Below are positions 7,568 through 60,645 of a DNA stretch of 64,000 bases, piece by piece. Numbering within the stretch: the stretch's first letter is position 1; every line of letters starts with the position of its first letter. The stretch comes from a virus, in the IMG/VR virus record IMGVR_UViG_3300044632_000653. One strand, given 5' to 3'. The translations under genes were made by a program, and so were the position numbers. Under the pieces are notes generated by a model. It saw only the letters and a list, made by a program, of their open reading frames with translations. It searched no databases and was not told where the DNA came from.

Positions 7568-7885
7568 ATGAAGAACTACCGTGAGTTCATCACCGAGACC
7601 TTCGATTCCTTCAAGGTGTTCAAGCACAAGGCGAACGCCAACGAGGAGGATTCCGAGTACGGCATCAGGGCTCTGATCCGATACACCCATGTTCTTCCCT
7701 CGGGTGAGAAGACGGTCATCACCTCTCTCTTTCCTCCGATCCAACTGAGGACAACGGACAACAAATACCAGTTCAATCGCCATCTCAACGCAATGGTTGC
7801 GAGTCTCAAGGCTGAAGGCAGGGAGATCCTCGGCATCCACATGAGAGGTGATCCACTCTACGACAGGCTTATGAAAAGGGGGTAA
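7568..7885 (+). CDS. Putative internal head protein, leader MKNYREFITE
   Basis: Close match to T4 IPII/IPIII leader MKTYQEFIAE. Confidence 0.7.
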   Translation: MKNYREFITETFDSFKVFKHKANANEEDSEYGIRALIRYTHVLPSGEKTVITSLFPPIQLRTTDNKYQFNRHLNAMVASLKAEGREILGIHMRGDPLYDRLMKRG

Positions 7886-16540: not shown

Positions 16541-16559
16541 GGAAACCATAAATACTCAT

Positions 16560-16856
16560 GTGAAGACCTTCAGCGAGTACATCATGGAGACCAACACCAC
16601 GGCAAACCTGATCTATGCGGGGACGGACTTTGCCGTCGATGATGTCGGGGGAGACTTCGATGTCGAGGACTACGAATCCGAAGACCCCGAGGACCGCAAG
16701 AAGATGAAACCGTGGGAAGTGGAGAACGCCGAGGAAGCGAACCGCCGCAGGAACCACATCCTGCAGTGGCTGAAGGCAGCGGGGGCAAATCAATCCAAGG
16801 CGGTGACCGACAAGAGTTTGCCGCTCACACCCGAATGGCAGTCGAGGACACGATGA
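16560..16856 (+). CDS. Putative internal head protein, leader MKTFSEYIME
   Basis: GTG 5 nt after TAAATA; CTS-like leader. Confidence 0.7.
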   Translation: MKTFSEYIMETNTTANLIYAGTDFAVDDVGGDFDVEDYESEDPEDRKKMKPWEVENAEEANRRRNHILQWLKAAGANQSKAVTDKSLPLTPEWQSRTR

Positions 16857-42867: not shown

Positions 42868-43220
42868 GCAACGACATCGCCCTGACAATCGAAGATGCCA
42901 TCAGGCATAAGGTCCATGAGACGCTTCGTCTTTCGGGATCCAATCCTCCCGAACTTCCCGACAATCTCGTCGCTACCGACAACCTCGGTGAAGTGATTGA
43001 GAAACTCTGCATCCTCCACATCCGTACATGGTTCCTTGAGGACATGGTAGGTGTCGCAAAGACGGACGAAGAGGTCGCCTCCTTGAAGAGGAAGATCGAC
43101 ATCTGCTTCAAGCAGAAGAGACCGCAGTACATCCAAGCGATCAACCGCATGGTTGACGATGCGGTGATCAACCAAAGGCGCATCACGGAAGACTCCGTGA
43201 AGATCTACAAGGGGAACTGA
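42864..43220 (+). CDS. Small helical protein (DUF4254-like)
   Basis: LGEVIEKL.ILHIR.W.LED..R...IQAIN. Confidence 0.55.
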   Translation: MSNDIALTIEDAIRHKVHETLRLSGSNPPELPDNLVATDNLGEVIEKLCILHIRTWFLEDMVGVAKTDEEVASLKRKIDICFKQKRPQYIQAINRMVDDAVINQRRITEDSVKIYKGN

Positions 43221-44389
43221 TGATTCACCCAATTACCTTGGTGCGTGACACCATCGATCAGGATGACATCGGTTCCTTGATCGAATGGCTCAAAACCAAC
43301 CCACGCCTCACCAAGGGGGTGAAGACGGTTGAGTTTGAACAGGCGTGGAGCGGTTGGCTCGGCTGCAAGTACTCCGTGTTCGTGAACTCGGGCTCATCTG
43401 CGAACCTTGCCATCCTGTACGCCCTCATCATCTCGGGTAGGCTTAGGAACAAGAAGGTGGTGTTCCCCTGCCTCTCTTGGGTCACCACCGTGGCACCTGC
43501 CATCCAACTCGGGCTTGAACCGATCCTTTGCGAGACGGACAGCCGCAACCTCGGGATCGATGTCGCAGAGTTTGAGAAGATCTGCGAGCGGGAGAGTCCC
43601 GCTGCCGTGATGATCGTGCATGCACTTGCCTTCCCCAACGACATGCGGGGCATCAGGGAGGTGTGCGAGAAGTACGGTGTGATCCTGCTTGAGGACTCAT
43701 GCGAGAGCGTGGGTACCTTGGTGGATGGAAAGAAGACAGGCACTTTCGGTCTTGCCTCTTCGTTCAGCACATACTACGGTCACCACTTCTCGACCATCGA
43801 AGGCGGCTTCGTCTGCACCGATGACTACGAGTTCTACAACATCGTCAAGAGCATCCGATCCCATGGATGGTCTAGGGACCTTGACGAGGTGACCCGTAGA
43901 GATCTCCAACTGAAGTACGGGATCGATGACTTCAGGAACCTCTACACCTTCTACCATGCGGGATTCAACCTGCGCTCGACGGACCTACAGGCGTTCATCG
44001 GGATCAGTCAGTTGGAGAAACTCGACCGCTTCTGCGAGATGCGCTACGAGAACCTGCTGACATACGACAGGCTGATCCGAAACCCGTATTGGAAGATCGA
44101 CATCTCGCAGTTCGACTTCGTGTCCAACTTCGCATACCCCGTGATCCATCCCCTGTCTGCGACGATGGTCGAGAAACTGACGGCAGCGCATGTCGAATGC
44201 CGACCGTTGATAGCAGGAAGCATCTCAAGGCAACCGTTCTTCTACGAGAGGTATGGAAAGAAGGCGTATCCGTTCTCGGATCGCATCCACGACCACGGCA
44301 TCTACCTACCGAACAACCCGACGATGACAGAGGACGAAATCAACATGGTGTCCAACATCATCAACGGAGTCACATCACATCCGAGTTGA
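43220..44389 (+). CDS. DegT/DnrJ family PLP enzyme, ColD-type 3-dehydratase
   Basis: VNSGSSAN, EDSCE, STYYGHHFSTIEGG (His in place of the usual Schiff-base Lys). Confidence 0.85.
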   Translation: MIHPITLVRDTIDQDDIGSLIEWLKTNPRLTKGVKTVEFEQAWSGWLGCKYSVFVNSGSSANLAILYALIISGRLRNKKVVFPCLSWVTTVAPAIQLGLEPILCETDSRNLGIDVAEFEKICERESPAAVMIVHALAFPNDMRGIREVCEKYGVILLEDSCESVGTLVDGKKTGTFGLASSFSTYYGHHFSTIEGGFVCTDDYEFYNIVKSIRSHGWSRDLDEVTRRDLQLKYGIDDFRNLYTFYHAGFNLRSTDLQAFIGISQLEKLDRFCEMRYENLLTYDRLIRNPYWKIDISQFDFVSNFAYPVIHPLSATMVEKLTAAHVECRPLIAGSISRQPFFYERYGKKAYPFSDRIHDHGIYLPNNPTMTEDEINMVSNIINGVTSHPS

Positions 44390-44404
44390 AAGAGGAAAAG
44401 CAGC

Positions 44405-45091
44405 ATGTCGCTTATTGACCTGAATCAAAAACCTCTACCTCTGTCGATACACATCCTCACCACATCTCTGAACAGGGATAGGCATCAGTCTATTCTGAAC
44501 ACATGGCTCAAAGATTTCTACGACTATGTGTTCTACACCGATTTCACTTCTGAAATAGGAAATCAAGTAGAACTTACCACGAACACGGAGTACCACTCCA
44601 ATGGGGAAAAGCACATTCTTGAAGTGAATAGAATCGTGAGGGAGAAGATCCACAACGATTACCAATGGTTCTATTTCTGCGATGATGATACGGTCCCCAA
44701 CATATCAAGGATCTTGGACTACTGTCGTACCGCAGACCGAAGTAAGGTTCATGCTTGGACGGACACCTGTTGGGCAGAGGATCCGACTTTACTATCCGTT
44801 TCGGGTGGTGCTGGATATCTCGTTCCTTCTGAAGTATTCCAAGGAAGGACACCCCCAAGGCTGAAACGGATCGTGTGGTCCGATGTTCAATTTGCTCTGT
44901 GGCTGCGAGAGAACGGCATACCGTTGCAACACAATTCCGAGTTCAAGCACAACATCCCATCTCAGTTCGGAATCGACATTTCCACGGTGGAGGGCAGGAA
45001 CTTGGTGAGGGAACACATGTCTTTCCACTATGTCAAGAACCACGAACTGCGATCTGCGATATGGGAAATCTACAACACACCCAAGGAATGA
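44405..45091 (+). CDS. Fringe/GT31-like glycosyltransferase
   Basis: TW, WFYFCDDDT, SGGAGY, SDV, SFHY; AT-richer than flanking genes. Confidence 0.7.
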   Translation: MSLIDLNQKPLPLSIHILTTSLNRDRHQSILNTWLKDFYDYVFYTDFTSEIGNQVELTTNTEYHSNGEKHILEVNRIVREKIHNDYQWFYFCDDDTVPNISRILDYCRTADRSKVHAWTDTCWAEDPTLLSVSGGAGYLVPSEVFQGRTPPRLKRIVWSDVQFALWLRENGIPLQHNSEFKHNIPSQFGIDISTVEGRNLVREHMSFHYVKNHELRSAIWEIYNTPKE

Positions 45092-45110
45092 AGATATGGG
45101 ATTGCAATCC

Positions 45111-45201
45111 ATGAAGACTCTCGTCACAGGCGCAGCAGGATTCAAAGGACGAGATCGGCATGGTTTCAGACATCGTCAACAGCGTCACATTGGAGAAATG
45201 A
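45111..45201 (+). pseudogene. Deletion scar: epimerase N-terminus fused to DegT-like C-terminus
   Basis: MKTLVTGAAGF then, in another frame, KDEIGMVSDIVNSVTLEK*, resembling the end of 43220 (EDEINMVSNIINGVT). Confidence 0.7.
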
Positions 45202-45768
45202 ATGGACCACATTTACACACAGCCGCAGTTTGGAGAGAATTGGTTTACCTATCCGAACCTCTACTCACAATTTGTCCGTGAACTGCCAAGCGGTTCCAAG
45301 ATGGTGGAGGTTGGTTGTTGGAAGGGAAAGAGCATCGCCTACCTCGGGGTCGAGATCATCAACTCAGGGAAGGACATCCATGTCCATGCCATCGACACTT
45401 GGGAGGGATCGCCAAACGAACCTCCACATCAGCAGGATGTCTATGTCCGAACGGGGAAACTCTATCAGTTGTTCCTGTCGAACATCTCCCCCGTCTCTTC
45501 CGTGGTGTTTCCCGTGAAGGTCGCTTCGGTCGAGGGCGCAAAGAGGTATGCCGATGAGTCCTTGGATGTCGTGTTCATCGACGCATGCCACACCTATGAG
45601 TGCGTCAAGGAGGACATTGCAGCATGGCTTCCGAAGGTGAAGAAAGGCGGCTACCTTGCGGGACATGATTACCCTTGGAGCCATGAGGATGCCGTAAAGA
45701 GAGCGGTGGATGAGAGCGTTTCTCCAATCCAAGTCACCGAGGGATGTTGGGTCTATAAGAAAAGGTAA
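45202..45768 (+). CDS. Class I SAM methyltransferase (Methyltransf_24-like)
   Basis: VEVGCWKGKS, IDTW, FIDACHTYE, GHDY. Confidence 0.88.
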   Translation: MDHIYTQPQFGENWFTYPNLYSQFVRELPSGSKMVEVGCWKGKSIAYLGVEIINSGKDIHVHAIDTWEGSPNEPPHQQDVYVRTGKLYQLFLSNISPVSSVVFPVKVASVEGAKRYADESLDVVFIDACHTYECVKEDIAAWLPKVKKGGYLAGHDYPWSHEDAVKRAVDESVSPIQVTEGCWVYKKR

Positions 45769-45773
45769 TCAAG

Positions 45774-46679
45774 ATGAATGCCATGGTCACAGGTGCGGCG
45801 GGCTTCATCGGCTCGCATATGGTCGATCTCCTACTGAACCACAGGCACTCGGTTGTCGCCGTAGACAACGAGAGTTCAGAGTCGCATGCCAAGTTTCATT
45901 GGAACCCGCTTTGTGATAACAGATTGTCTGATGTTTGCGACCTCACGCCACTCGACTTCGACGGTGTGGATGTGGTGTTCCATATGGCGGCTGAAGTCAG
46001 CATCCCGAAGTGCATGGCACACCGTGATCAGGCTTTCAGCACCAATGTGATCGGAACATGGAATGTCCTCGACTGCGCACAGAAGGCGGGAGTGCGTCGG
46101 CTCGTCTTCTCGTCCACCTCGGCGATCTACGGAGTCAGGGCAAGCGGTTTCTCTCCTCCTGTGAAGGAGACTGATTCCATCGACTGCCCGAACAACTACG
46201 CAACGAGCAAGTTCATCGGGGAGCAGTTGTGCAAGCAGTACTCTCTTCTCCACGGACTCGACACGGTGTGCCTCAGGTACTTCAATGTCTTCGGCGAGAG
46301 ACAGGCTGACAGGGGGTCATATAGCCCCGTCATCGCATCGTTCCTGCGGATGCGAAGGGAAGGCAAGCCCCTCCTCATATTTGGAGATGGTCATCAGTCG
46401 AGGGACTATGTCCATGTCTCGGATGTGGTCAGGGCGAACCTCATGGCGGCTGACCATCCCCACGCCCTCCACGGTGAGGCAGTCAACATCGGAAGTTGGC
46501 GGTCTTCGTCGGTACTAGAGATCGCCCGTGTAATATCCCCCGACGAAAGGTCGATATGCTTCATGCCGAAGCGTGAGGGTGAGGTCAGGCATTCGTTGGC
46601 TGACTGTGGCAAGGCTGCTTCCCTGTTCGGTTGGAAGGCAAAGACGGATGTGATGGATTGGATACGGAATGCAACCTAA
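45774..46679 (+). CDS. NAD-dependent epimerase/dehydratase
   Basis: VTGAAGFIGS, SSTSAIYG, YATSK, RYFNVFG. Confidence 0.92.
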   Translation: MNAMVTGAAGFIGSHMVDLLLNHRHSVVAVDNESSESHAKFHWNPLCDNRLSDVCDLTPLDFDGVDVVFHMAAEVSIPKCMAHRDQAFSTNVIGTWNVLDCAQKAGVRRLVFSSTSAIYGVRASGFSPPVKETDSIDCPNNYATSKFIGEQLCKQYSLLHGLDTVCLRYFNVFGERQADRGSYSPVIASFLRMRREGKPLLIFGDGHQSRDYVHVSDVVRANLMAADHPHALHGEAVNIGSWRSSSVLEIARVISPDERSICFMPKREGEVRHSLADCGKAASLFGWKAKTDVMDWIRNAT

Positions 46680-48144
46680 CACGGACAAGATCGAAGTCGC
46701 CATCCTCAGAAGCCTCCTGCACCTGTCGGAGTTCACTCGACGGGTGCTTCCCTTTTTGAAGGAAGCCTACTTCCACGATCCCTGCGAGAAGAGGCTGTTC
46801 CTCACGATCTCGGAGTTCACCTCCAAGTACAACGCACCGCCGACCGAGGAGGCACTCAGCATCATCCTCGGTCAGCAGGACGGGATGTCCCAAGGCGAGT
46901 ACGACGAATGCGTTCGACTTCTGCCTCTCCTTGGCGAGCCTCAAGAGCATCCCGACCTCCAATGGCTCATCGATCAGACGGAGAAGTTCTGCAAGGACAA
47001 GGCGGTCTACAACGCTCTCATGGAGTCCGTCGAACTCCTTGACGAGAAGCGGTCGAAGGGGAGGTCCAAGGCTGCTATCCCCGAGATCCTCAAGGAAGCC
47101 CTCAGTATCTCATTCGATGAACACATCGGTCACGACTTCATTGAGGATGCCGAGCGGCGGTACGAGTTCTACCACAAGGTGGAGAAGAAGACACCGTTCG
47201 ACCTCGACATGTTCAACAAGATCACCAACGGCGGGGTGCCCGACAAGACCCTCAATGTGATCCTTGCGGGAACTGGTGTAGGCAAGTCCCTGTTCATGTG
47301 CCACCACGCCGCCAACTGCCTCTCGCAGAGCAAGAATGTCCTCTACATCACCTGCGAGATGGCTGAGGAGAGGATCGCCGAGCGCATCGATGCGAACCTC
47401 ATGGACATCACATTGGATGACCTCAAGAAGTTGCCGATGGATGTGTACGCCAAGCGGCTCTCCAAGGTCACGGCGGGGATCACGGGCAAGTTGTTGATCA
47501 AGGAGTACCCCACGGCATCGGCGAACGCAGGGCACTTCCGACACCTCCTTGACGAACTGCGGCTGAAGAAGGACTTCAAGCCCGACATCATCTTCATCGA
47601 CTACCTCAACATCTGCGCCTCGGTGAGGTTCAAGCCTGGAGCGAATGTCAACTCCTACACCTACATCAAGGCGATTGCGGAGGAACTCCGAGGTCTCGCC
47701 GTGGAGATGGCGGTGCCGATCTTCACGGCAACACAGACCAACCGCTCGGGGTTCGGCAACACGGATGTTGACCTGACCGACACATCCGAGTCGTTCGGAC
47801 TTCCCGCCACCGCCGACTTCATGTTCGCACTCATCGCCACCGAGCAGTTGGACGAACTCGGTCAGGTCATGGTGAAGCAACTCAAGAACCGCTACAACGA
47901 TGTCGCCACGAACCGAAAGTTCGTGGTCGGAATCGACCGTGCCAAGATGAAGTTGTTCGATGTCAGCGATCCAACGGCGAACCTCGTCAACGCAGCCGTG
48001 AACGACGATGACGATCCCGCCCCCGTGCGCCCACGCCCCCACGCACACGGGCGCACGGGCGTGAACGCATGCGCACCCACACGGGCGCACGGGCGCACGG
48101 GCGCACGGAAACCACCCATCGATGATGACGATGGATGGACCTGA
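46669..48144 (+). CDS. gp41: Replicative DNA helicase
   Basis: AGTGVGKS, IKEYPT, IDYLN, ATQTNR, SESFGLPATAD, QLKNRY. Confidence 0.97.
   Translation: MQPNTDKIEVAILRSLLHLSEFTRRVLPFLKEAYFHDPCEKRLFLTISEFTSKYNAPPTEEALSIILGQQDGMSQGEYDECVRLLPLLGEPQEHPDLQWLIDQTEKFCKDKAVYNALMESVELLDEKRSKGRSKAAIPEILKEALSISFDEHIGHDFIEDAERRYEFYHKVEKKTPFDLDMFNKITNGGVPDKTLNVILAGTGVGKSLFMCHHAANCLSQSKNVLYITCEMAEERIAERIDANLMDITLDDLKKLPMDVYAKRLSKVTAGITGKLLIKEYPTASANAGHFRHLLDELRLKKDFKPDIIFIDYLNICASVRFKPGANVNSYTYIKAIAEELRGLAVEMAVPIFTATQTNRSGFGNTDVDLTDTSESFGLPATADFMFALIATEQLDELGQVMVKQLKNRYNDVATNRKFVVGIDRAKMKLFDVSDPTANLVNAAVNDDDDPAPVRPRPHAHGRTGVNACAPTRAHGRTGARKPPIDDDDGWT
48016..48108 (+). repeat. GCACGGGCGCAC-based repeat cluster in helicase tail (related clusters at 12561, 17355, 34020, 35889, 57193)
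   Basis: Tandem cacgggcgcac units. Confidence 0.85.
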
Positions 48145-48248
48145 CCTGCACATGGACGGGTGCCTGAATCGGAAAAAGGTGGTCGCTTATAACGGCCCTC
48201 ATGTGGGTTCGATCCCCACCCCGTCTACTCATAGATACGGAAAATACC

Positions 48249-49406
48249 ATGCTCACATTCAAGGAAGTCGGCACCACAGAGATCACCCGCAACAAGCACC
48301 TCCCCCATGTCGAGGACCTCATGTTCCTTGAGGGAAAGGGAGGTCTCGCCTCCTCGCTCCACATCCTCGCCGAGGTGATGCGTCAGTCCGATGGCATCAG
48401 GATGTCGGTGAAGTGGGATGGTCGCCCCGCCATCGTGTGTGGGATCAATCCCGAGAACTCCAAGTTTTTCGTCGGCACGAAGGCGGCGTTCAACAAGGAT
48501 GTCCGTGCGTTCGACACCAAGGATGGGATCATGGCGGGGGTGGAGAACCCCGACCTCGCCGAGAAGTTGGTCGAGTGCCTCGCATGGCTCCCTAGCCTCG
48601 GCATCCGAGGTGTCGTGCAAGGCGACCTCCTGTTCACCTCCGATTCCATCACGGTCACCGAGGAGGAGGTGGCGTTCCAACCCAACGCCATCAGGTACTC
48701 GGTCGGAAGGAACACCGCCGTGGGCAAGGCGATCAGCAACGCCAAGTTGGGTGTCGCCTTCCATACGGTCTACGAGGGCAAGACCATGGGATCGCTCACG
48801 GTCTCCTCGTTTGGATTCGACCCTTCCATGGTCGCACAGGATTCCCCCGTTTGGTTCCCGAGCATCTCCGTACACACCCTCACGGAAAGCACTCCACTTG
48901 AGAACGCCACCAATGAGGCGAGGCTCCACTACTGCGAGGAGCAGTCGGAGAAGGTCGGGCAGTTCCTCGGGACCATGCTCTCAAACAAGGAACTCGTCCC
49001 CTTCCTCTCCCCCTACATCAACGCCACGGTCATGGCGAACATCTCGGAGTGTTCGGCACGGGGTCTTGCCCTCTACATCGAAACCAAGGTGGGCAAGGAG
49101 ATCCTCAAGTTGAAGACCGACAAGGGCAGGTCGGACAAGAAGGCACTAGCAGACCGCCTGATCAACTTCACCGAGGTCTACGCCAAGCAGTTCGATACGG
49201 CGTTTCTCCTACATAGGAAGATGGCTCTCGTAAAGGAATCTCTCCTCCAAAGGGTGCCTCTTACCGAGTTCCGCCATCACTTTGTCGATGCCGAGGGCAT
49301 GCGACCGACCGAGCCCGAGGGAATCGTCGTGAGTGAGTCCAAGAGAGCCGTGAAGTTCGTGACACGGTCACGGTTCTCGGCGCAGAACAGGAAGGTAAAC
49401 GGGTGA
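48249..49406 (+). CDS. Conserved T4-like phage protein (DUF6267-like; ligase-type KxDG motif)
   Basis: NKHL.HVED, SVKWDG.PAIVCG, FFVGTK, QGDLLF, PEG.V; TAGATA at 48232. Confidence 0.75.
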   Translation: MLTFKEVGTTEITRNKHLPHVEDLMFLEGKGGLASSLHILAEVMRQSDGIRMSVKWDGRPAIVCGINPENSKFFVGTKAAFNKDVRAFDTKDGIMAGVENPDLAEKLVECLAWLPSLGIRGVVQGDLLFTSDSITVTEEEVAFQPNAIRYSVGRNTAVGKAISNAKLGVAFHTVYEGKTMGSLTVSSFGFDPSMVAQDSPVWFPSISVHTLTESTPLENATNEARLHYCEEQSEKVGQFLGTMLSNKELVPFLSPYINATVMANISECSARGLALYIETKVGKEILKLKTDKGRSDKKALADRLINFTEVYAKQFDTAFLLHRKMALVKESLLQRVPLTEFRHHFVDAEGMRPTEPEGIVVSESKRAVKFVTRSRFSAQNRKVNG

Positions 49407-52400
49407 AAGGTTTCTCCACACACATCAGCGAGCGTGGTCCGAGGGACACCGCAGTCTTCTCGTTCGGGCGCATGAATCCTCCGACAACGGGACATGGTGT
49501 GGTGGTGGACACGGTCGTTGAGGAGGCTAGGGCTCTTGATGCCGATCACTTCGTCTTCCTCTCCCGCACACAGGATGCAAAGGTGAACCCCCTCTCGACC
49601 GAGAAGAAGGTCGAGTACATGAAGGCGTTCTTCCCGAATACAAACATCTCCACCGAGGCTACGAACCCCTTCGATGCCGTCCTGCATCTCTGCGACATGG
49701 GATACAAGAACATCGTCCTCGTCACGGGAGATGATCAACAGGCTGACTACGAGCGCATCCTGAAGTACAAGGGAACGGTCGCCGCCAAGGATCCAAAGGG
49801 AAGGTCCTACTCGTTTGAGTCGTTCCGAGTCCGTGTGGCGGGGGAGCCCCGCTCCAAGGATTCGACGGGACTCGCAGCCGTGGGTGCGACCGATGCCCGT
49901 GAGGCGGCTTTCAGAGGCGACTTCGCCGCATTCTCCGCACTCATCCCCACCGAGGACGGTCTCCTCAAGGAGCGGCTCTACAACGATGTCCGCAAGGGTC
50001 TCGGTCTCAACGAGGAGTATGTCGAGGAGGCTCGGGAGAACGGAGACAAGGTCACCATCCTCGCCCTGACATCCTCGGACAAGGATCTCTCGGACACGAT
50101 TGAGAAGATGGGGGAGATCTGCAAGAAGCGCAAGATCCCCTTCTATGCCGTCAAGACGAAGAAGGCGCAGATCGACCTGTCGAGCGTCGTGGCGAAGAAG
50201 ATCACCATCAAGAACTATGACGGCGAAGGCAAGGATGTGACCATCGTTCCGAGCGACACGATAGCAATCGTCCGTGGCGGGGTTATGAACAGCGAGGTCG
50301 GGGTTGCGATCCTCACCATCCTTCAGAACAACGGCGTGTTCATGGTGAACGAGAAGGGGGGTATGGAACTCTGCGCCAACAAGTTGGAGACCGCCATCGC
50401 CCTCAAGAAGCACGGTCTGCCCCACCCAAAGACCGCCTATGTCTCTAGCGAGGCGAACATCGAAGCCGCAGTCAAGGAGATCGGGGGCAAGTTTCCCGTC
50501 ATCTGCAAGACCCTGACGGGTGCCGAGGGCATCGGTGTCTCCAAGATCGAAAGCATGGAGAGCCTCAAGAGCGTCCTACAGACGCTTTGGAAGTTCGGTG
50601 CCGAGATCATCATCCAAGAGTTCCTCCCCGACTTCAAGAACGATGTCCGCAGCATCGTCCTCAACGGCAAGATCTTCGCCTGTGCCAAGCGTGACAAGGC
50701 ACCGAAGGACTTCCGCACGAACATCGCCCGTGGATCGAAGGGCGGCTCGTTCCAACTCTCCGACGAGGAGATCAAGTTGGTCGAGCAAGCCGCTCGGGTG
50801 AGCAAGTGCTACTATGTCGGAATCGACCATGTCATCAACGATGGCAAGCCGTACATCATTGAGATGAACGCAAGCCCTGGCAGCGGCAACATCTACTACC
50901 GCTACTACGAGGACGGCAAGGGCAAGGACAATGTCAAGGGCGAGGAGTTGGTCGAGGACTTCCTTGACCACATCCTTGTCAAGGCAAATTGGAAGTTGTT
51001 CTCAAACCTCGCAGTCCGTGAGACGGTGAAGGTCGATGGCGTGGAGTACCAAGCCAAGATCGACACGGGGAACAGCGGCTACAACATGATCCATGCCACG
51101 GAGATCAAGGACAACGGCGACCACACCGTCACCTTTAGGCTCCCGAGCGGCAAGAAGGTGACGAAGAAGATCATCAGCCGCATCAGCGTGAAAAGCGGGA
51201 TCGGGGAGAAGAAGCGTCTCGTCGTGCTGATGGACATCGACTTCCACGGGAAGCACTATCCGAACATCAAGTTCTCCCTCGGCGACCGAAGCCACATGTC
51301 GAGCAAGGTCCTCGTCGGTCTCCGATTCCTCGGACAGACGGGCAGCGTGGTTGACCCCGCCGATGCCATCTATCCTCAACCCGACCCCAAGAAGAAGGGG
51401 GTGACCGAGGAGGAGGAAGAGGAGGAGGAGATCTCGGAGATGTCTGCGGTCGAGGTGAAGGACGCAGCCAAGGAGATCATCACAAGCCCGTTGGTGGCGA
51501 CCAAGGTATTCGCTCTCGCCAACAAGAAGAAAGTGCTGACTCCCGAGGCTTTCAAGAAGGAAGTTGAGACAACGAAGCAGGAAATCCTCGCCCACGCATA
51601 CAAGGTCACGGGCGCATCCGTGACCTTGAACATGTTCCTACAGAAGACCATGTTGGGCAAGTTCTTGGTGAAGATCCTCGACAAGGTCCTCATCCAAGGA
51701 ACCATCGACCCCGTGATTGTGGGGAAGGCTCTCCACTCGGCTATTCCGTATCTCGGCATGGGCGACGATGTCGATGGCAATCCCCTCGTCGAAGCCGATG
51801 TCACCAAGGGCAAGAAATTCAAGACCAAGTCGGGCAAGACGAGGAAGTCGCCCGAGGACAAGACCTCGGGTCTCCCGAAGAAGTATGTCTCGGGATTGAG
51901 CAAGGGCGAGGCGAAGACCCGAAGCAGGGAACTCGCCAAGCGGAAGGACATGCCCGATGACGATCCCAAGACTTGGGAGTTCGTGAATCCACGGGAGAAA
52001 AAGATGAAGACGAAGCCGTCGAAGTACACGACGCTGTTCAAGAAACTCGCCAAGAAGGGCAAGGTCAAGGCTATCAAGAGCGGCTACGAGCATGACGAGG
52101 CTTTGGAGCGGCTGTGGTCCATTGACGAGTCCCAAGAGACGAACTCGTCCAAGTTGAGGCTAGCCATCGCCTACGAGGACCGATGCCGTGAGCGAGGCAT
52201 GTCGGAGGCTACCGAACTCGTCAGGGCGTACATCGAACAACTCAAGGAAGTCCGCAACGAAGAGATCGGCACGGACGAGCCCACCACCATTGACGAGGAC
52301 TTCGACTACCTGCTGATGGAGGTGAGTCCTCCTAGCGGACCCGCCCGTCGATTCTCCAAGAAGGAGAAGGTCAAGGCTCAGTTCAAGAAGAGGTACGGCA

Positions 52401-53005
52401 AAGATTGGAAGCAGGTCTTCTACGCCACGGCATGGAAGATGCACGGCAAGTCCGAGTCGGTCGTGGTCGCCGACGAATGGCTTGCCGAGGCTGACAGGAT
52501 CCACGGCGTGATGAAGTGGACCTCCTTGAGCAAGCGTGGTCCCCTTGAGATAGGCAGCGACGAGATCGTCAAGACCTACAAGCGTGACACTCCAGGTGAG
52601 CGTGAGCGTCTCAAGGAGGAGGGCGGCGAGGAGATCGATGACGAGAAGAGGCGGCTCTACAAGGAGTGGCAGAAACTCGTCAACATGTCGGGCAAGGAGA
52701 TCCAATCGTTCCTCGACTCCGATGGTGGCGAGGAGGCGGGATTGAGCCGCAAGGAGGCGGGTAAGGCGGGAGCGGGTGGCAAGAAGATCACCAGCGGTCG
52801 TGACTCTGCCCGTGCGATCATCCGAATGCTCGACACCCCGATGGTGAAGTGGAGTGCCAACGATTGGAAGTGGGCGGGTAAGCAAGTCAACTTCATCTCC
52901 CGCATGAAGGGTGCGAAGGGCGGCATGCGTGACGAGAAGGGTCGCCCCACCCGCAAACTCCTAGCACTCAAGGTTTGGGGTCACAACCCCGAGAAGAAAG
53001 GCTGA
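49403..53005 (+). CDS. 1200-aa polyprotein: CTS-like leader, HIGH-type nucleotidyltransferase, RimK-like ATP-grasp ligase, retropepsin-like (RimB-type) protease, poly-Glu, small basic modules, DUF3140-like C-terminus
   Basis: MKGFSTHISE; FGRMNPPTTGH; NKLET..P.T..FPVICK..G.EGIGV..QEF..DVR..FRTN.ARG..GID..EMNASPG; AKIDTGN; E8 at 51407-51430; LVNMS..SGRDS..WGHNP. Confidence 0.85.
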   Translation: MKGFSTHISERGPRDTAVFSFGRMNPPTTGHGVVVDTVVEEARALDADHFVFLSRTQDAKVNPLSTEKKVEYMKAFFPNTNISTEATNPFDAVLHLCDMGYKNIVLVTGDDQQADYERILKYKGTVAAKDPKGRSYSFESFRVRVAGEPRSKDSTGLAAVGATDAREAAFRGDFAAFSALIPTEDGLLKERLYNDVRKGLGLNEEYVEEARENGDKVTILALTSSDKDLSDTIEKMGEICKKRKIPFYAVKTKKAQIDLSSVVAKKITIKNYDGEGKDVTIVPSDTIAIVRGGVMNSEVGVAILTILQNNGVFMVNEKGGMELCANKLETAIALKKHGLPHPKTAYVSSEANIEAAVKEIGGKFPVICKTLTGAEGIGVSKIESMESLKSVLQTLWKFGAEIIIQEFLPDFKNDVRSIVLNGKIFACAKRDKAPKDFRTNIARGSKGGSFQLSDEEIKLVEQAARVSKCYYVGIDHVINDGKPYIIEMNASPGSGNIYYRYYEDGKGKDNVKGEELVEDFLDHILVKANWKLFSNLAVRETVKVDGVEYQAKIDTGNSGYNMIHATEIKDNGDHTVTFRLPSGKKVTKKIISRISVKSGIGEKKRLVVLMDIDFHGKHYPNIKFSLGDRSHMSSKVLVGLRFLGQTGSVVDPADAIYPQPDPKKKGVTEEEEEEEEISEMSAVEVKDAAKEIITSPLVATKVFALANKKKVLTPEAFKKEVETTKQEILAHAYKVTGASVTLNMFLQKTMLGKFLVKILDKVLIQGTIDPVIVGKALHSAIPYLGMGDDVDGNPLVEADVTKGKKFKTKSGKTRKSPEDKTSGLPKKYVSGLSKGEAKTRSRELAKRKDMPDDDPKTWEFVNPREKKMKTKPSKYTTLFKKLAKKGKVKAIKSGYEHDEALERLWSIDESQETNSSKLRLAIAYEDRCRERGMSEATELVRAYIEQLKEVRNEEIGTDEPTTIDEDFDYLLMEVSPPSGPARRFSKKEKVKAQFKKRYGKDWKQVFYATAWKMHGKSESVVVADEWLAEADRIHGVMKWTSLSKRGPLEIGSDEIVKTYKRDTPGERERLKEEGGEEIDDEKRRLYKEWQKLVNMSGKEIQSFLDSDGGEEAGLSRKEAGKAGAGGKKITSGRDSARAIIRMLDTPMVKWSANDWKWAGKQVNFISRMKGAKGGMRDEKGRPTRKLLALKVWGHNPEKKG

Positions 53006-53008
53006 CCG

Positions 53009-53269
53009 ATGAAGAACTTTGGGGGAATCAAGAAGGACATCATGGAAGCCCGCATCGCCGCCTTGGAGAAGAAGGCGAAGAAGAGCGGCATCCCATACGG
53101 CATCCTAAAGAAGGTCTACGACAGGGGAATGGCTGCATGGAAGGGGGGTCACCGTCCAGGTGCCACCTCACACCAATGGGCATTTGCCCGTGTCAACTCG
53201 TTCATCGTGGGCGGGAAGACCCGCAAGACCGCCGATGCCGACCTTTGGAAGAAAGCCAAGGGCGGTTGA
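53009..53269 (+). CDS. DUF5824-like small basic protein with leader MKNFGGIKKDIME
   Basis: KKSGIPYGILKKVYDRG.AAW..GHRPG....QWA.ARVNSF. Confidence 0.75.
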   Translation: MKNFGGIKKDIMEARIAALEKKAKKSGIPYGILKKVYDRGMAAWKGGHRPGATSHQWAFARVNSFIVGGKTRKTADADLWKKAKGG

Positions 53270-53300
53270 TCGCTAAATAGAAAGCACTAGGAGAGTCAGT

Positions 53301-54179
53301 ATGTCCATGTTTCACAATCCATTCAACTCCAAGGTCGTAGCCGACATCACCAAGTTCCTCAACGAGCATCGCAACGATGTGAGGATCAATCCTTGCCTTG
53401 ACGAGGCTGCGAAGGAGGCTGCGGGGGGCATCGACCTCGACGGAATGCTGATTGAGGAGAAGAGGGCGGTCCTCCGACTCGCCTTCAACGAGGCTGTCGG
53501 TAAGTGCGGCTGCAAGGGCACGAACCAAGAAGCAAACGAGTTCACGGCTGCGTTTGAGAGGCATGTCGAGGAAGGCAAGAAGTTGCCGCCCGAGTTCCTA
53601 AAGAACATCGAAAAGAAGAAGAAGGAAGCGAAGGCGAAGAAGGAGTCGGTCGAGGAGGGTGAGCATCGCCGCCCTTTTGACCGCTTGGACGAGGCATACG
53701 CCCTAGAGGGCTTTGCCCAACCGACTGAGAAGGAACTCAGGAAGTTGGTGAAGTATTTTCAAACGATACTCAAAGACCCGAAGAAACTGAAGGCGAGCGG
53801 ATTCGACAAGAAAGAGGCAGAGGAAAACCTTGAGGATGCGCTTCACATGATCAAAACCATGGAAGAGTTCGCCAAGGACTTTGCAGCAACCAAGGCTAAG
53901 GTCAAGGAATCCTTCGATGTGACCGAGTTGGGCGAGGCGAAGGCTTCGTCCACTATCGAATTCTCTCTCATGTCGAAGGACTTCGATGGAATGGAATCCG
54001 CCCACGACTCCCTCCCTAGGAGGTTGAAGTCGATGCAGACGGGATCGGGCATGGCGTTGGGGAGCGGGATGCGTGACCACGGCTACGAGTGCAAGTCGAA
54101 GTCCGACATGGATGCCATCGTCGCCCACTACAAGAAGAAGGTAAAGAGCCTGACCGTCAAGAAGCACTCTGCGGAGTAG
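53301..54179 (+). CDS. Putative internal head/scaffold-like polyprotein
   Basis: TAAATA at 53274, AGGAG RBS; many L/V-x-E sites; Lys/Glu-rich. Confidence 0.6.
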   Translation: MSMFHNPFNSKVVADITKFLNEHRNDVRINPCLDEAAKEAAGGIDLDGMLIEEKRAVLRLAFNEAVGKCGCKGTNQEANEFTAAFERHVEEGKKLPPEFLKNIEKKKKEAKAKKESVEEGEHRRPFDRLDEAYALEGFAQPTEKELRKLVKYFQTILKDPKKLKASGFDKKEAEENLEDALHMIKTMEEFAKDFAATKAKVKESFDVTELGEAKASSTIEFSLMSKDFDGMESAHDSLPRRLKSMQTGSGMALGSGMRDHGYECKSKSDMDAIVAHYKKKVKSLTVKKHSAE

Positions 54180-54185
54180 GTCGGG

Positions 54186-54413
54186 GTGACCGAGGCTGCG
54201 AAGAAGCAGTCTTTCTCTGACCTCTTGATGAAAAAGGCAACGAGGAAGAAGGAGCCTTGGGAAGAGGCTTACTACAAGTGGTTCGATGGCGTGTCGATTG
54301 GAATCTTTGACATGGGTAAGGTTGCCAAGGAGATTCAGGCTCTTATCGCAGCGAAGGCGAACCTTGATGTCGAGATGCCGAAACTTGTGAAGAAGTACGG
54401 CAAGAACAACTAG
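54186..54413 (+). CDS. Small hypothetical protein
   Basis: ORF in late array. Confidence 0.5.
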   Translation: MTEAAKKQSFSDLLMKKATRKKEPWEEAYYKWFDGVSIGIFDMGKVAKEIQALIAAKANLDVEMPKLVKKYGKNN

Positions 54414-54452
54414 GATTCGGACGGCTGCTAAATACCGCAAAGGGAGAAACAG

Positions 54453-55223
54453 ATGGCACTTTGGAACAAGTTTGACAGGGAAGAGTCCAAGCCGACTTGG
54501 CTGAACGCAGCACAGAAGATCAACTGTGTTCGCACCATCAAGGGATGGGAACTTCCGCTCGACGGCACCTCGCTTGGCGGTCAACTTCAGGGCAAGTTGG
54601 GCACGACGGCATCGGTTCCGAACATGGAACTCCTTGTCGCCATTCCGCTCGACTTTTCCACCACGGGCGTGACCGACGCTTACTACGCCAACCGCAGCAT
54701 CACCGCCGCAGGTGCGACCTACGGCACCGATGTGCCGAACTACCGTCCCTACTTCACCTGCCCCTTCAGCGGGGATGGTCCGACCGAGGGTGGTTTCAAC
54801 AGCGCAGGTCTGTCCTTCACCACCTCGGTGGCGGGTTCGGGCACCACGGGCGCAGGAAACTACGCCGTCAACGGCTACGGTGTCTCCACTCTGAACTTCC
54901 CCGCCTCGGCGACGGCTTACATCAAGATCGTCGCCAACGATGTGAACTTCACCCACAACCTCACCTTCAGCGAGGTCACCGATCCGTTCGGTGCGCAGGG
55001 CAACATCGTGCAGGGATCTGCGCTGTTGGTCGCAAACAATGTCCCGACCGCAGTCTACGAGACCTTCTTCGGACCCACCTCGGCGTTCAACAACAATGTC
55101 GCCGTGTTCAAGGTCAACAGGGCGGGTGCCACCGCTGCCAACCGCTCGGTCACCCTCCGTGTGACCGATGCGGGATCGGGAAGCCTTACCGCCGACACCA
55201 CCTTCAAGGTGTCCTTCGTCTGA
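54453..55223 (+). CDS. Virion structural protein
   Basis: MALW N-terminus; Thr/Gly/Ala-rich Ig-like end; TAAATA at 54429. Confidence 0.6.
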   Translation: MALWNKFDREESKPTWLNAAQKINCVRTIKGWELPLDGTSLGGQLQGKLGTTASVPNMELLVAIPLDFSTTGVTDAYYANRSITAAGATYGTDVPNYRPYFTCPFSGDGPTEGGFNSAGLSFTTSVAGSGTTGAGNYAVNGYGVSTLNFPASATAYIKIVANDVNFTHNLTFSEVTDPFGAQGNIVQGSALLVANNVPTAVYETFFGPTSAFNNNVAVFKVNRAGATAANRSVTLRVTDAGSGSLTADTTFKVSFV

Positions 55224-59076: not shown

Positions 59077-60645
59077 ATGTCGGGTCGATTTCGCTACATC
59101 AAGGACTACCGAGAGGATGAAGATCCTCAGAAGAAGCACCCGATCAACGAGGAGCCCGATGTTCCGTCAACCCCGAGCAAGGGAGAGGACGGACTCCCAG
59201 GCATTCGTGGTCCCCGAGGTCCCAAGGGCGACAAAGGCGAACAAGGTCCGCAAGGACTTGTAGGCGAACGAGGCGAACGAGGCGAACGAGGTCTCCAAGG
59301 TCTGCATGGACTGAGGGGAGAGCGAGGTGAGCGTGGAGAGCAAGGTTCCCAAGGTCCGCAAGGTGAGAAGGGAGCCACGGGTTCCCAAGGAGTCCAAGGC
59401 GAAAGAGGACTTCAAGGATTGGCAGGGGAAAAGGGAGCGCAGGGCGAGAGGGGAGATATCGGGGCGCAGGGACCCGAAGGTCCGCAGGGACCTGTTGGCG
59501 AACGAGGAGAACGAGGCGAACGGGGAGAGCAAGGTCCCCAAGGAGCCGAAGGTCCCCAAGGTTTCCAAGGTCCGCAAGGAAACGAAGGTCCCCAAGGTCC
59601 CCGTGGAGAGCGTGGGGAAAAGGGAGAGCAAGGCGATCAAGGAGAGCGAGGCTCTCAAGGCGTTCAAGGAGTTGCAGGACAGGCTGGGCCTATAGGTCCA
59701 CAAGGTCCGCAAGGCGAGAGAGGTGCCACGGGAGACTCGGGCGTTCTCTCGGTTCAGTATCCGCTGAAACTCGACCCCGACCGCAAGCATCTCACAATCG
59801 ATCTGTCGAAGATCAAGCCGACCACGCCGATCCTCTACGACGGCGGCGGCGGTCTTGGCGAAGCATTCAAGTTCATCTCCGTGTCGGGTCAGTCGGGTCT
59901 GACTGCCGTTCAGTACGACAAGGAGACCCTGACCCTCGTTGCGGGTAACAACATTACCCTCACGACAGATCCCAACAGCAACTCCATCACGATCAATGGT
60001 TCAGGTGGCGGCGGTACAGGTTCGGTTGGCGGCATAACTGGAGACTATGTCTCGGGAATCAATGGTCTCACGGGCGCACTCGGGCTCACAGTCGGGGGCA
60101 ACATCACCCTGACCATGACGGGAGCGAACAACAAGACATTCCGCCTGTATGTCAAGCCCCCCGCCACAGTCAAGGGACAAGCGGGTGCCCTCGCCTTCAC
60201 CGATACGAACGCTCCATTTGAGGGGGACGGGTCGGATCTCGGAGCAGACAACGCCCTCAAGTACAACTACCTGTCCGATCTCTCGTTTGAGGCTCCAGGT
60301 TCGATCAAGTTCGGCACCACCTTGGCGGGGTCCTATTTGGAGTTCCCCGATGGCACCACACAGGACACGGCAGCAAAGTGCTGCCCGATTCCAATAGCGA
60401 CAACGGGATCGACGGGTGTCGCTTCCTTCGATGGGGAGCAGTTCAATGTCTCCACGACGGGACATGTCACGATAAGGACGGGGATCAAGGCGGGAAACCT
60501 CATCGTCTTGGGGTCGAGTCTTATCTTCGGTGTGGGAGGGACAGGAGCCTTGCCTGCCCTCGACGGTTCCGCATTGACGGGAGTCGATGCCAAATACCTT
60601 CAAGGCAAGACCCCTCGGCAGATCACCGATGGTGGCACATTCTGA
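59077..60645 (+). CDS. Collagen-like tail fibre protein
   Basis: Long Gly-X-Y tract (about 59190-59740); TGVASF motif; C-terminal DGGTF. Confidence 0.85.
   Translation: MSGRFRYIKDYREDEDPQKKHPINEEPDVPSTPSKGEDGLPGIRGPRGPKGDKGEQGPQGLVGERGERGERGLQGLHGLRGERGERGEQGSQGPQGEKGATGSQGVQGERGLQGLAGEKGAQGERGDIGAQGPEGPQGPVGERGERGERGEQGPQGAEGPQGFQGPQGNEGPQGPRGERGEKGEQGDQGERGSQGVQGVAGQAGPIGPQGPQGERGATGDSGVLSVQYPLKLDPDRKHLTIDLSKIKPTTPILYDGGGGLGEAFKFISVSGQSGLTAVQYDKETLTLVAGNNITLTTDPNSNSITINGSGGGGTGSVGGITGDYVSGINGLTGALGLTVGGNITLTMTGANNKTFRLYVKPPATVKGQAGALAFTDTNAPFEGDGSDLGADNALKYNYLSDLSFEAPGSIKFGTTLAGSYLEFPDGTTQDTAAKCCPIPIATTGSTGVASFDGEQFNVSTTGHVTIRTGIKAGNLIVLGSSLIFGVGGTGALPALDGSALTGVDAKYLQGKTPRQITDGGTF

Follow-up and report, generated by a model that had tools for sequence, protein, structure and literature searches.

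A leader-tagged polyprotein with nucleotidyltransferase, RimK-family and RimB-like domains as candidate head cargo of uncultured T4-like phages

Introduction

What might a bacteriophage gain from joining a glutamate ligase of the RimK family, a protease of the RimB type and a run of eight glutamates in one protein, and from placing them behind a leader that resembles the capsid-targeting sequence of T4 head proteins? This question is raised by the plus strand of a 64,000-nucleotide stretch of viral DNA, the IMG/VR virus record IMGVR_UViG_3300044632_000653 (in the following, the window, meaning the whole of this stretch), which encodes a polyprotein with these elements at positions 49403-53005. 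An earlier note, made from the letters of the DNA, had described it as a candidate virion-targeted polyprotein that would carry a module for writing and erasing glutamylation, to be used either on the ribosomes of the host or inside the phage head.

To our knowledge, RimK and RimB have so far been known only as a bacterial ribosome-tuning system. The window derives from an uncultured freshwater T4-like phage, and the polyprotein probably is head cargo that is loaded, cut and injected with the DNA. We put at roughly 55% the probability that it belongs to a family of head-cargo polyproteins in an uncultured T4-like clade, cut by the prohead protease and ejected together with the genome.

Results

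The open reading frame (ORF) is unbroken over its 1200 amino acids (aa; 133.5 kDa, isoelectric point (pI) 9.1), starts with GTG and overlaps by 4 nt with the stop codon of the upstream gene, which encodes a DUF6267 protein. From the N- to the C-terminus it contains a leader similar to the capsid-targeting sequence (CTS), a HIGH-type nucleotidyltransferase (NTase), a RimK-family ATP-grasp domain, a PF05618 retropepsin, the stretch of eight glutamates (E8) and, in the family, four to six small basic helical modules, between which conserved [LIVM]-x-E sites lie in predicted disordered linkers. The earlier note had given this extent and this domain order, and both are borne out: profile and structure searches carried out domain by domain uphold the NTase, the RimK and the RimB-type assignments, and all its domain assignments were correct. 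Long antisense ORFs lie opposite the polyprotein in this stretch of 57% GC and have no homology support.

The first indication of a destination in the head comes from the leader. In T4, the 10 N-terminal residues of the internal protein IPIII are enough to direct a protein to the capsid. Within the CTS, targeting depends on positions 4 and 7 and processing on positions 8 and 10, and the protease gp21 cleaves after L/I-x-E (PMC9026906). The leader pattern found here has a basic residue at position 2, an aromatic residue at 4, I or L at 8 and E at 10 (F4, I8 and E10 in the polyprotein). Scanning the window for it retrieved seven ORFs on the plus strand and none on the minus strand. Besides the polyprotein, these are six small ORFs (98-146 aa, starting at 1733, 2170, 2550, 4387, 7568 and 16560), which probably constitute a set of internal head proteins; the N-terminus of one of them, ORF 7568-7882, matches phrog_2667, annotated as internal head protein. 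Within the family of the polyprotein, the pattern fits 73 of 111 N-termini, as compared to 7.9% of internal windows. Residues 1-11 are disordered in the AlphaFold2 (AF2) model, with a predicted local distance difference test (pLDDT) score below 50.

The second indication is the presence of potential cleavage sites. Apart from the enzyme cores, the alignment shows nine conserved [LIVM]-x-E columns, at aa 10, 204, 209, 679, 797, 965, 973, 1029 and 1072, and those at 797, 965, 973 and 1029 are the LVE, IDE, LME and LAE sites that had already been noticed in the earlier note. All four sites in the C-terminal part that was modelled fall into segments with a pLDDT below 50, and such segments make up 27% of its residues. 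Cutting at the conserved sites is computed to release a 22 kDa NTase, a 52 kDa RimK-RimB piece and basic pieces of 5-19 kDa. A protease that could perform these cuts, a gp21-family Peptidase_S77, is encoded in two near-complete relatives (168 and 177 kb).

One may ask whether the enzymes could already act in the head, in that RimK extends the C-terminal Glu of the fragments cut by the protease and RimB trims the extension, thereby tuning the charge of the internal proteins. A gp21-type cut does leave a C-terminal Glu (PMC9026906), and the RimK-RimB fragment would itself have a Glu-rich end, but the known substrate of RimK ends in Glu-Glu, whereas most of the predicted fragments end in x-Glu. 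Moreover, the supply of ATP and free glutamate in a sealed prohead that this would call for is without support, and stand-alone RimK-RimB proteins are found in phages that lack this polyprotein. We consider this course of events highly improbable.

Homologues of two parts of the polyprotein have been detected in phage particles. The NTase domain is homologous to gp154 of S-CREM2, annotated as cytidylyltransferase (27% identity, E 4e-20), which carries the same type of 10-aa leader and has TATAAATA upstream of its gene. Mass spectrometry of CsCl-purified virions detected gp154 through 3 peptides (11.2% coverage); the S-CREM2 authors remark that cyanophage virions often contain such transferases, and they concede that carry-over is possible (PMC10665884). 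The RimK-RimB protein of YerA41 (gp066, 473 aa) was likewise detected in phage particles (PMC7354516), and the table of YerA41 proteins is the only place in the literature where we found a phage RimK in virions.

How firmly is the ligase domain assigned? Residues 238-496 match PF08443 with E 8.8e-30 (104 bits against a cutoff of 21), and residues 238-493 pass the curated cutoff of the RimK family model TIGR00768 rimK_fam (146.6 against 143.4 bits). Among 28 diverse homologues, the ATP-grasp and Mg residues K369, E487 and N489 are invariant and D475 is nearly so. The best solved relatives found with the family profile are Pseudomonas RimK (110 bits) and E. coli RimK, with ArgX/LysX reaching 49 bits, and the alignment to Pseudomonas RimK extends over 209 residues and includes the E-x-N and DFR-x-N motifs. 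At the level of individual functions, the S6--L-glutamate ligase equivalog NF007764 yields 73.3 bits, below its cutoff of 331, and MptN, the best hit at the NCBIfam equivalog level (121 bits), and LysX (97 bits) score higher but are also far under their cutoffs. The grouping with RimK proposed in the earlier note therefore stands for the subfamily, where the model is passed and RimK is the best PDB match, but does not extend to the S6 ligase, whose equivalog cutoff is missed.

Glutamylation of cofactors is known from MptN and CofF, and in some phages thymidine is glutamylated. The target might thus be a small molecule: the NTase would activate, and the RimK-type ligase would glutamylate a cofactor or a nucleotide, in the service of DNA hypermodification or of metabolism. 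MptN does come out ahead of the S6 ligase among the equivalogs, but with every score so far under its cutoff, and the family profile favours RimK proper over ArgX/LysX. YerA41, with its RimK-RimB homologue, has hypermodified thymidine, and aminotransferase-, epimerase-, methyltransferase- and glycosyltransferase-like genes are located 3-6 kb upstream of the polyprotein gene; the ligase, however, is always fused to a protease of the poly-Glu type, which argues for peptide chemistry. Furthermore, relatives do carry the NTase without the RimK insert, a possibility raised in the earlier note and realized in Melnitz and in cyanophages, so that the two enzymes are not an obligate pathway pair. Altogether, glutamylation of a small molecule strikes us as quite improbable.

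The protease domain (aa 540-654) reaches 30.9 bits with PF05618, whose gathering cutoff is 27, and D554, T555 and G556, the catalytic DTG that the earlier note had recognized, are invariant in the 28 homologues. The family profile matches the retropepsin-like chains 9g58 (2e-7), 9g59 and 2pma, with an alignment to 9g58 that is domain-wide. As with the ligase, the equivalogs are not reached (RimB, NF052261: 26 bits against a cutoff of 200; RloA3, NF052264: 35 against 210). The RimB-like domain directly follows RimK in all the polyproteins as well as in the stand-alone forms.

The E8 tract, which the earlier note had placed exactly, occupies aa 669-676 and begins 16 residues past the conserved VDP that closes the RimB domain, a distance of 13-19 residues in relatives. 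Its presence is of interest, since RimB strips glutamates off polyglutamylated RpsF, needs at least 6 contiguous Glu for this, cuts an engineered internal E8 linker in vitro as well as in vivo, and stimulates RimK (PMC11957791). In a set of 119 homologue clusters, runs of at least 6 E are present in 38 and runs of at least 5 in 47, and 52 clusters have no more than 3 in a row. Runs of at least 6 E mostly continue into [LIVM]-x-E, and most clusters with 3 or fewer E keep [LIVM]-x-E at the junction. Because polyprotein clades that lack a Glu run retain an intact DTG, and because the stand-alone forms have no tract, E8 is a clade-specific junction feature and cannot be the main substrate of the protease. 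The suggestion in the earlier note that E8 may be a self-cleavage site agrees with the specificity of RimB, but since the tract is restricted to one clade, the protease cannot exist chiefly for it. E8 might act as a tether or tail sensitive to RimB, and it may also prime RimK.

The NTase domain escaped both a Pfam search and a sequence search of the PDB, but residues 12-208 match the phage 'cytidyltransferase' families phrog_3041 (4.5e-40) and phrog_395. An AF2 model built with 23 homologues (pLDDT 86) gave 91 PDB matches at E ≤ 0.001 in Foldseek, topped by NaMNAT, PPAT, NadM and FAD synthetase with a probability of 1.0 and template modelling (TM) scores of 0.5-0.7. The (H/T)-x-G-H motif after strand 1 is present as TTGH (aa 28-31, 49484-49495), with G30 and H31 invariant. 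The second phosphate-binding motif, of the ISST-x-x-R type, is degenerate; it reads G-A-T-D-A-R (aa 160-166, 49880-49900) here and in the closest relatives and S-A-S-K-x-R in most of the family, and only R166 is invariant. According to the model, the domain is a divergent HIGH-superfamily transferase, which in this lineage may have lost some or all of its activity.

The part C-terminal of the enzymes is rich in lysine (14.7% K), its modules have pI values of 8.8-10, and it shows weak matches to DUF5824, DUF7366, DUF3140 and DUF6321. The module at aa 680-797 is confined to the forms of about 1200 aa, and its closing site, at aa 797, is conserved in 18 of 19 sequences. The next module, aa 798-965, has a pI of 9.5 and contains a three-helix bundle modelled with a pLDDT of 85-89. 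Conservation within the polyprotein is highest over the last ~115 residues, with about 60 invariant columns in the C-terminal module, which also occurs on its own as a viral protein of ~132 aa. As a whole, aa 817-1200 gave a poor AF2 model (mean pLDDT 63, predicted TM score 0.28), and with it Foldseek found no match among viral models at E ≤ 0.001; VIA-align against PDB representatives returned generic three-helix-bundle matches only, with Z up to 9.2, values that are uninformative for helical bundles. A PDB sequence search with the last 200 residues gave nothing meaningful, and an Atlas search with the C-terminal modules gave only further DUF3140 viral hypotheticals.

It is by whole cassettes that the C-terminal half differs between homologues. 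Small cassettes have been gained or lost in loci L016, L025 and L038, with an insert before the C-terminal module, and in homologues P0014, P0021 and P0041. One of them is a 'CW' module of ~28 residues with two Cys, which also occurs in Melnitz gp18 and in S-CREM2 gp160, a protein detected in virions; another is a G-K-W-V-I...F-F-K module of ~40 residues. The small cassettes behave like shuffled mini-domains.

How widespread is this architecture, and how did it arise? In a protein collection, 238 homologues share this domain order and measure 950-1330 aa, and in IMG/VR we found 169 loci with the polyprotein; members of the family are common in viromes of both freshwater and marine origin. Among deposited phage genomes, none contains the whole protein or covers at least 80% of it, a megablast of 20 kb against them found no match, and only Mosig, YerA41 and GN1 have the RimK-RimB pair. 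The record nearest to the window, G001, is a fragment of 61.7 kb with 99% identity. A search for shorter proteins retrieved 84 clusters of stand-alone RimK-RimB (~460-500 aa), of which 79 keep D[TS]G and none has a poly-Glu tract. These proteins mostly start with a very T4-CTS-like leader, and leader-RimK-RimB genes are present on contigs of up to 370 kb. When the stand-alone form is aligned to the polyprotein, its leader falls on the internal NTase/RimK junction. This points to the in-frame insertion of a leader-bearing RimK-RimB gene, the cleavage site of which would have persisted internally. Melnitz gp18 has the same NTase followed by small modules, including the 86-aa module described below, without RimK-RimB, which makes the pair an insert into an older NTase-module protein. 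In the literature we found nothing on DUF6267, DUF3140, DUF5824, DUF6321, DUF7366, RimK 'polyvalent proteins' or 'cytitidyltransferase'.

The order of genes around the polyprotein, gp41 helicase - DUF6267 - polyprotein - 86-aa protein - ... - gp61 primase, is kept in about 80 loci. The DUF6267 protein has a KWDG sequence, hence a KxDG as in motif I of ATP-dependent DNA/RNA ligases and capping enzymes, and a weak Atlas lead points to RNA_ligase (score 0.76); a PDB sequence search gave nothing meaningful. In phrog_455 members from other phages, DUF6267 is fused to the NTase. Its N-terminus is leader-like in relatives, Melnitz gp16 having a 10-residue leader that ends in I-T-E. These sequence features would be compatible with DUF6267 being a ligase-like enzyme that may be packaged as well. 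Downstream, the gene for the 86-aa protein (p86) starts 3 nt past the polyprotein TGA in the same frame (TGA CCG ATG, 53003-53011), and from this arrangement the two genes look tightly coupled. The p86 protein has a pI of 10.5, matches the C-terminal end of phrog_3041, and recurs as a module inside Melnitz gp18, an NTase polyprotein. Readthrough of the stop codon from the polyprotein into p86 was considered and rejected, as the frames differ in the relative L009.

With respect to transcription, the T4 late promoter TATAAATA was not found in the window, in which CTAAATA is enriched instead: it occurs 11 times on the plus strand (265, 7257, 11494, 13008, 21365, 27525, 28672, 35280, 53273, 54428 and 59061) and never on the minus strand, with 0.45 expected, and mostly lies a few to ~30 nt ahead of ORF starts. 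Compared with the T4 sequence, CTAAATA is likely the late promoter core of this phage. The operon itself is preceded by a one-mismatch variant, CATAGATA. In relatives, an exact [CA]TAAATA is found 9-32 nt before the DUF6267 start in 26 of 26 cases, and thus the operon looks late in the family, with a weaker case for this genome. An Rfam search of 47500-54500 found no RNA family. Elsewhere in the window, ATAAATA occurs at 16548, ahead of the leader-bearing ORF at 16560, and a CTAAATA directly precedes a 522-aa protein (59077-60645) with four stretches of collagen triple-helix repeats, which is probably a late fibre protein. Just upstream of gp41, 43220-46679 encodes an aminotransferase (phrog_3139), a Fringe-like glycosyltransferase, a methyltransferase-like protein and a nucleotide-sugar epimerase, which could form a cluster for sugar or DNA modification. 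The features of the locus are collected in Table 1.

Table 1. Positions in the window of the polyprotein, its parts and its immediate neighbours
Feature	Position	Strand	Basis or remark
Late-promoter-like element, one mismatch to [CA]TAAATA core	48230..48237	+	12 nt before DUF6267 start 48249
DUF6267, upstream, translationally coupled, same operon	48249..49406	+	PF19782 5.5e-73
Whole polyprotein ORF	49403..53005	+	1200 aa; 238 homologues, 169 IMG/VR loci
10-residue capsid-targeting-like leader ending I-S-E	49403..49432	+	pattern shared by 7 ORFs
HIGH-superfamily nucleotidyltransferase, NMNAT/PPAT-like fold	49433..50029	+	phrog_3041/395, AF2 + Foldseek
NTase/RimK junction, sites LNE (aa 204), VEE (aa 209)	50006..50029	+	kept in 28/28 and 27/28
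RimK-family ATP-grasp alpha-L-glutamate ligase	50114..50890	+	PF08443, TIGR00768, PDB matches
RimB-like retropepsin (PF05618), catalytic DTG 51062-51070	51020..51364	+	Pfam, profile, alignment
E8 tract 51407-51430 (mostly GAG), then I-S-E 51431-51439	51407..51439	+	sequence
Helical, partly hydrophobic module aa 680-797, ends L-V-E	51440..51793	+	indel cassette in alignment
Basic module aa 798-965: DUF5824 N-half + three-helix bundle, ends I-D-E	51794..52297	+	weak PF19141
Two small basic modules aa 966-1029, 1030-1072; sites L-M-E, L-A-E, L-K-E	52298..52618	+	pI 9.3-10
C-terminal module, DUF3140/DUF6321-like	52619..53002	+	PF11338 4.7e-5, PF19846
86-aa basic protein (p86), DUF5824 C-half, own looser leader	53009..53269	+	PF19141 1.1e-19

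Discussion

The description of the polyprotein as virion-targeted, which goes back to the earlier note, is supported by the leader, the conserved cut sites, the gp21-type protease and the late-promoter-like element of relatives, and the proteomics of S-CREM2 and YerA41, which are independent of each other but all indirect. Put together, they suggest the following sequence of events. The leader would carry the polyprotein into the prohead core, where a gp21-type prohead protease would cut the linker motifs behind their Glu, giving rise to an NTase of ~22 kDa, a RimK-RimB protein of ~52 kDa with a Glu-rich tail, and basic modules of 5-19 kDa that would stay with the DNA. The pieces would enter the host with the ejected genome, and there RimK-RimB would add and trim alpha-linked glutamates on the C-terminus of a protein, for which host ribosomal protein S6 is the default candidate. 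The E8 would serve as a junction element that is cut or trimmed by the protein's own RimB domain, and it might also prime RimK.

Several observations weigh against this. The polyprotein gene lies between the replication genes gp41 and gp61, the element before its operon is mismatched in this genome, and there is no exact copy between 35287 and 53272. In the leader, position 7 is His and not Phe or Tyr, and in about one third of the homologues the leader does not end in [LIVM]-x-E. The [LIVM]-x-E motif is short and common, and conserved [LIVM]-x-K columns are equally numerous in the K-rich regions; because the plain count of columns is not distinctive, the cut-site argument rests on location, that is, on the disordered linkers and the cassette borders. 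As to the enzymes, the NTase has a degenerate second phosphate-binding motif in this genome, and the RimK domain fails the S6-ligase equivalog (73 bits against 331). Finally, the mass-spectrometry support in relatives is thin (3 peptides in S-CREM2), and the proteins detected in virions, S-CREM2 gp154 and YerA41 gp066, are homologues of parts only, with no full-length homologue among them. The YerA41 particles also held ribonucleotide reductase and polymerases, and carry-over is admitted as possible (PMC7354516).

Some of these points would equally fit a protein that is never packaged but works in the cytoplasm as a self-processing multi-enzyme, whose retropepsin cuts the acidic tract in a retrovirus-like manner and in which the leader and the [LIVM]-x-E motifs are incidental. 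The location in the gp41-gp61 replication cluster, the lack of an exact late-promoter element before the operon and the frequency of [LIVM]-x-K columns all go in this direction, as does the fact that the YerA41 homologue is a middle-class gene. Internal E8 linkers are indeed cut by RimB (PMC11957791), but many polyproteins have the DTG and no Glu run, such that self-cleavage at poly-Glu is not a general route. Moreover, relatives do have a late-promoter-like element before the operon. If the leader were incidental, it would be surprising to find it in common with six small ORFs of the window, one matching an internal-head-protein family, and on an NTase homologue in purified S-CREM2 virions. 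On balance, we regard a purely cytoplasmic role as unlikely.

Returning to packaging and injection, a more far-reaching version can be formulated, which is speculative and which we hold to be doubtful. An injected RimK-RimB writer/eraser would be widespread in T4-like and larger phages; in the present family it would be chained to the NTase and to DNA-associated modules and would rewrite a C-terminus in the host, that of S6 or of a defence factor, within seconds, with a poly-Glu tether cleavable by RimB timing the release. Should the enzymes indeed be packaged and injected, the head-delivered chemistries of host takeover would include protein polyglutamylation besides the ADP-ribosylation known from T4 Alt. 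It would also mean that T4-type capsid targeting can carry a whole chain of enzymes and modules, to be cut apart by the prohead protease. Many phages bear the family, such that a result on one cultured relative would bear on many.

Among the closest parallels are the head proteins of T4 itself. IPI-III and Alt, which are processed by gp21 and ejected with the DNA, likewise start with a leader of 10 residues that has a key aromatic residue at position 4 and I/L-x-E at positions 8-10; further points in common are the basic cargo, cleavage behind Glu and a gp21-family protease (here in relatives), and Alt sets the precedent for an injected enzyme that modifies the host. In contrast to these proteins, the present case, known from sequence, is a single polyprotein of 133 kDa with three enzyme domains, internal sites and a His7. 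The virion-delivered, multi-domain 'polyvalent proteins' of other phages would be a comparable case.

The NTase part has its counterparts in S-CREM2 gp154 (286 aa) and gp18 of the Methylophilales phage Melnitz (650 aa), which have a homologous domain behind a leader of the same type and are likewise preceded by a late promoter. In Melnitz, furthermore, the locus likewise follows gp41/DUF6267 and has the same small modules (p86, CW module). Unlike the 1200-aa protein described here, both lack the RimK-RimB insert and poly-Glu. The complementary part is represented by YerA41 gp066, gp5 of the Pelagibacter phage Mosig and ~84 metagenomic clusters, which have RimK followed by RimB with DTG and mostly a CTS-like leader, but these stand-alone forms have no NTase, basic modules or poly-Glu tract.

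In bacteria, the RimABK system of Pseudomonas likewise combines a RimK-family ATP-grasp ligase and a PF05618 retropepsin with DTG (PMC11957791). It differs from the phage polyprotein, which comes without RimA and whose RimK and RimB equivalog scores are far below the cutoffs. A bacterial RimBK hybrid is known from Desulfotalea (DP2392), but there the order of domains is reversed relative to the RimK-then-RimB of the phages (PMC11957791). Each of the parts thus has a precedent; what is new is their union in one leader-tagged polyprotein punctuated by cleavage-type sites, and also the wide spread of leader-RimK-RimB genes.

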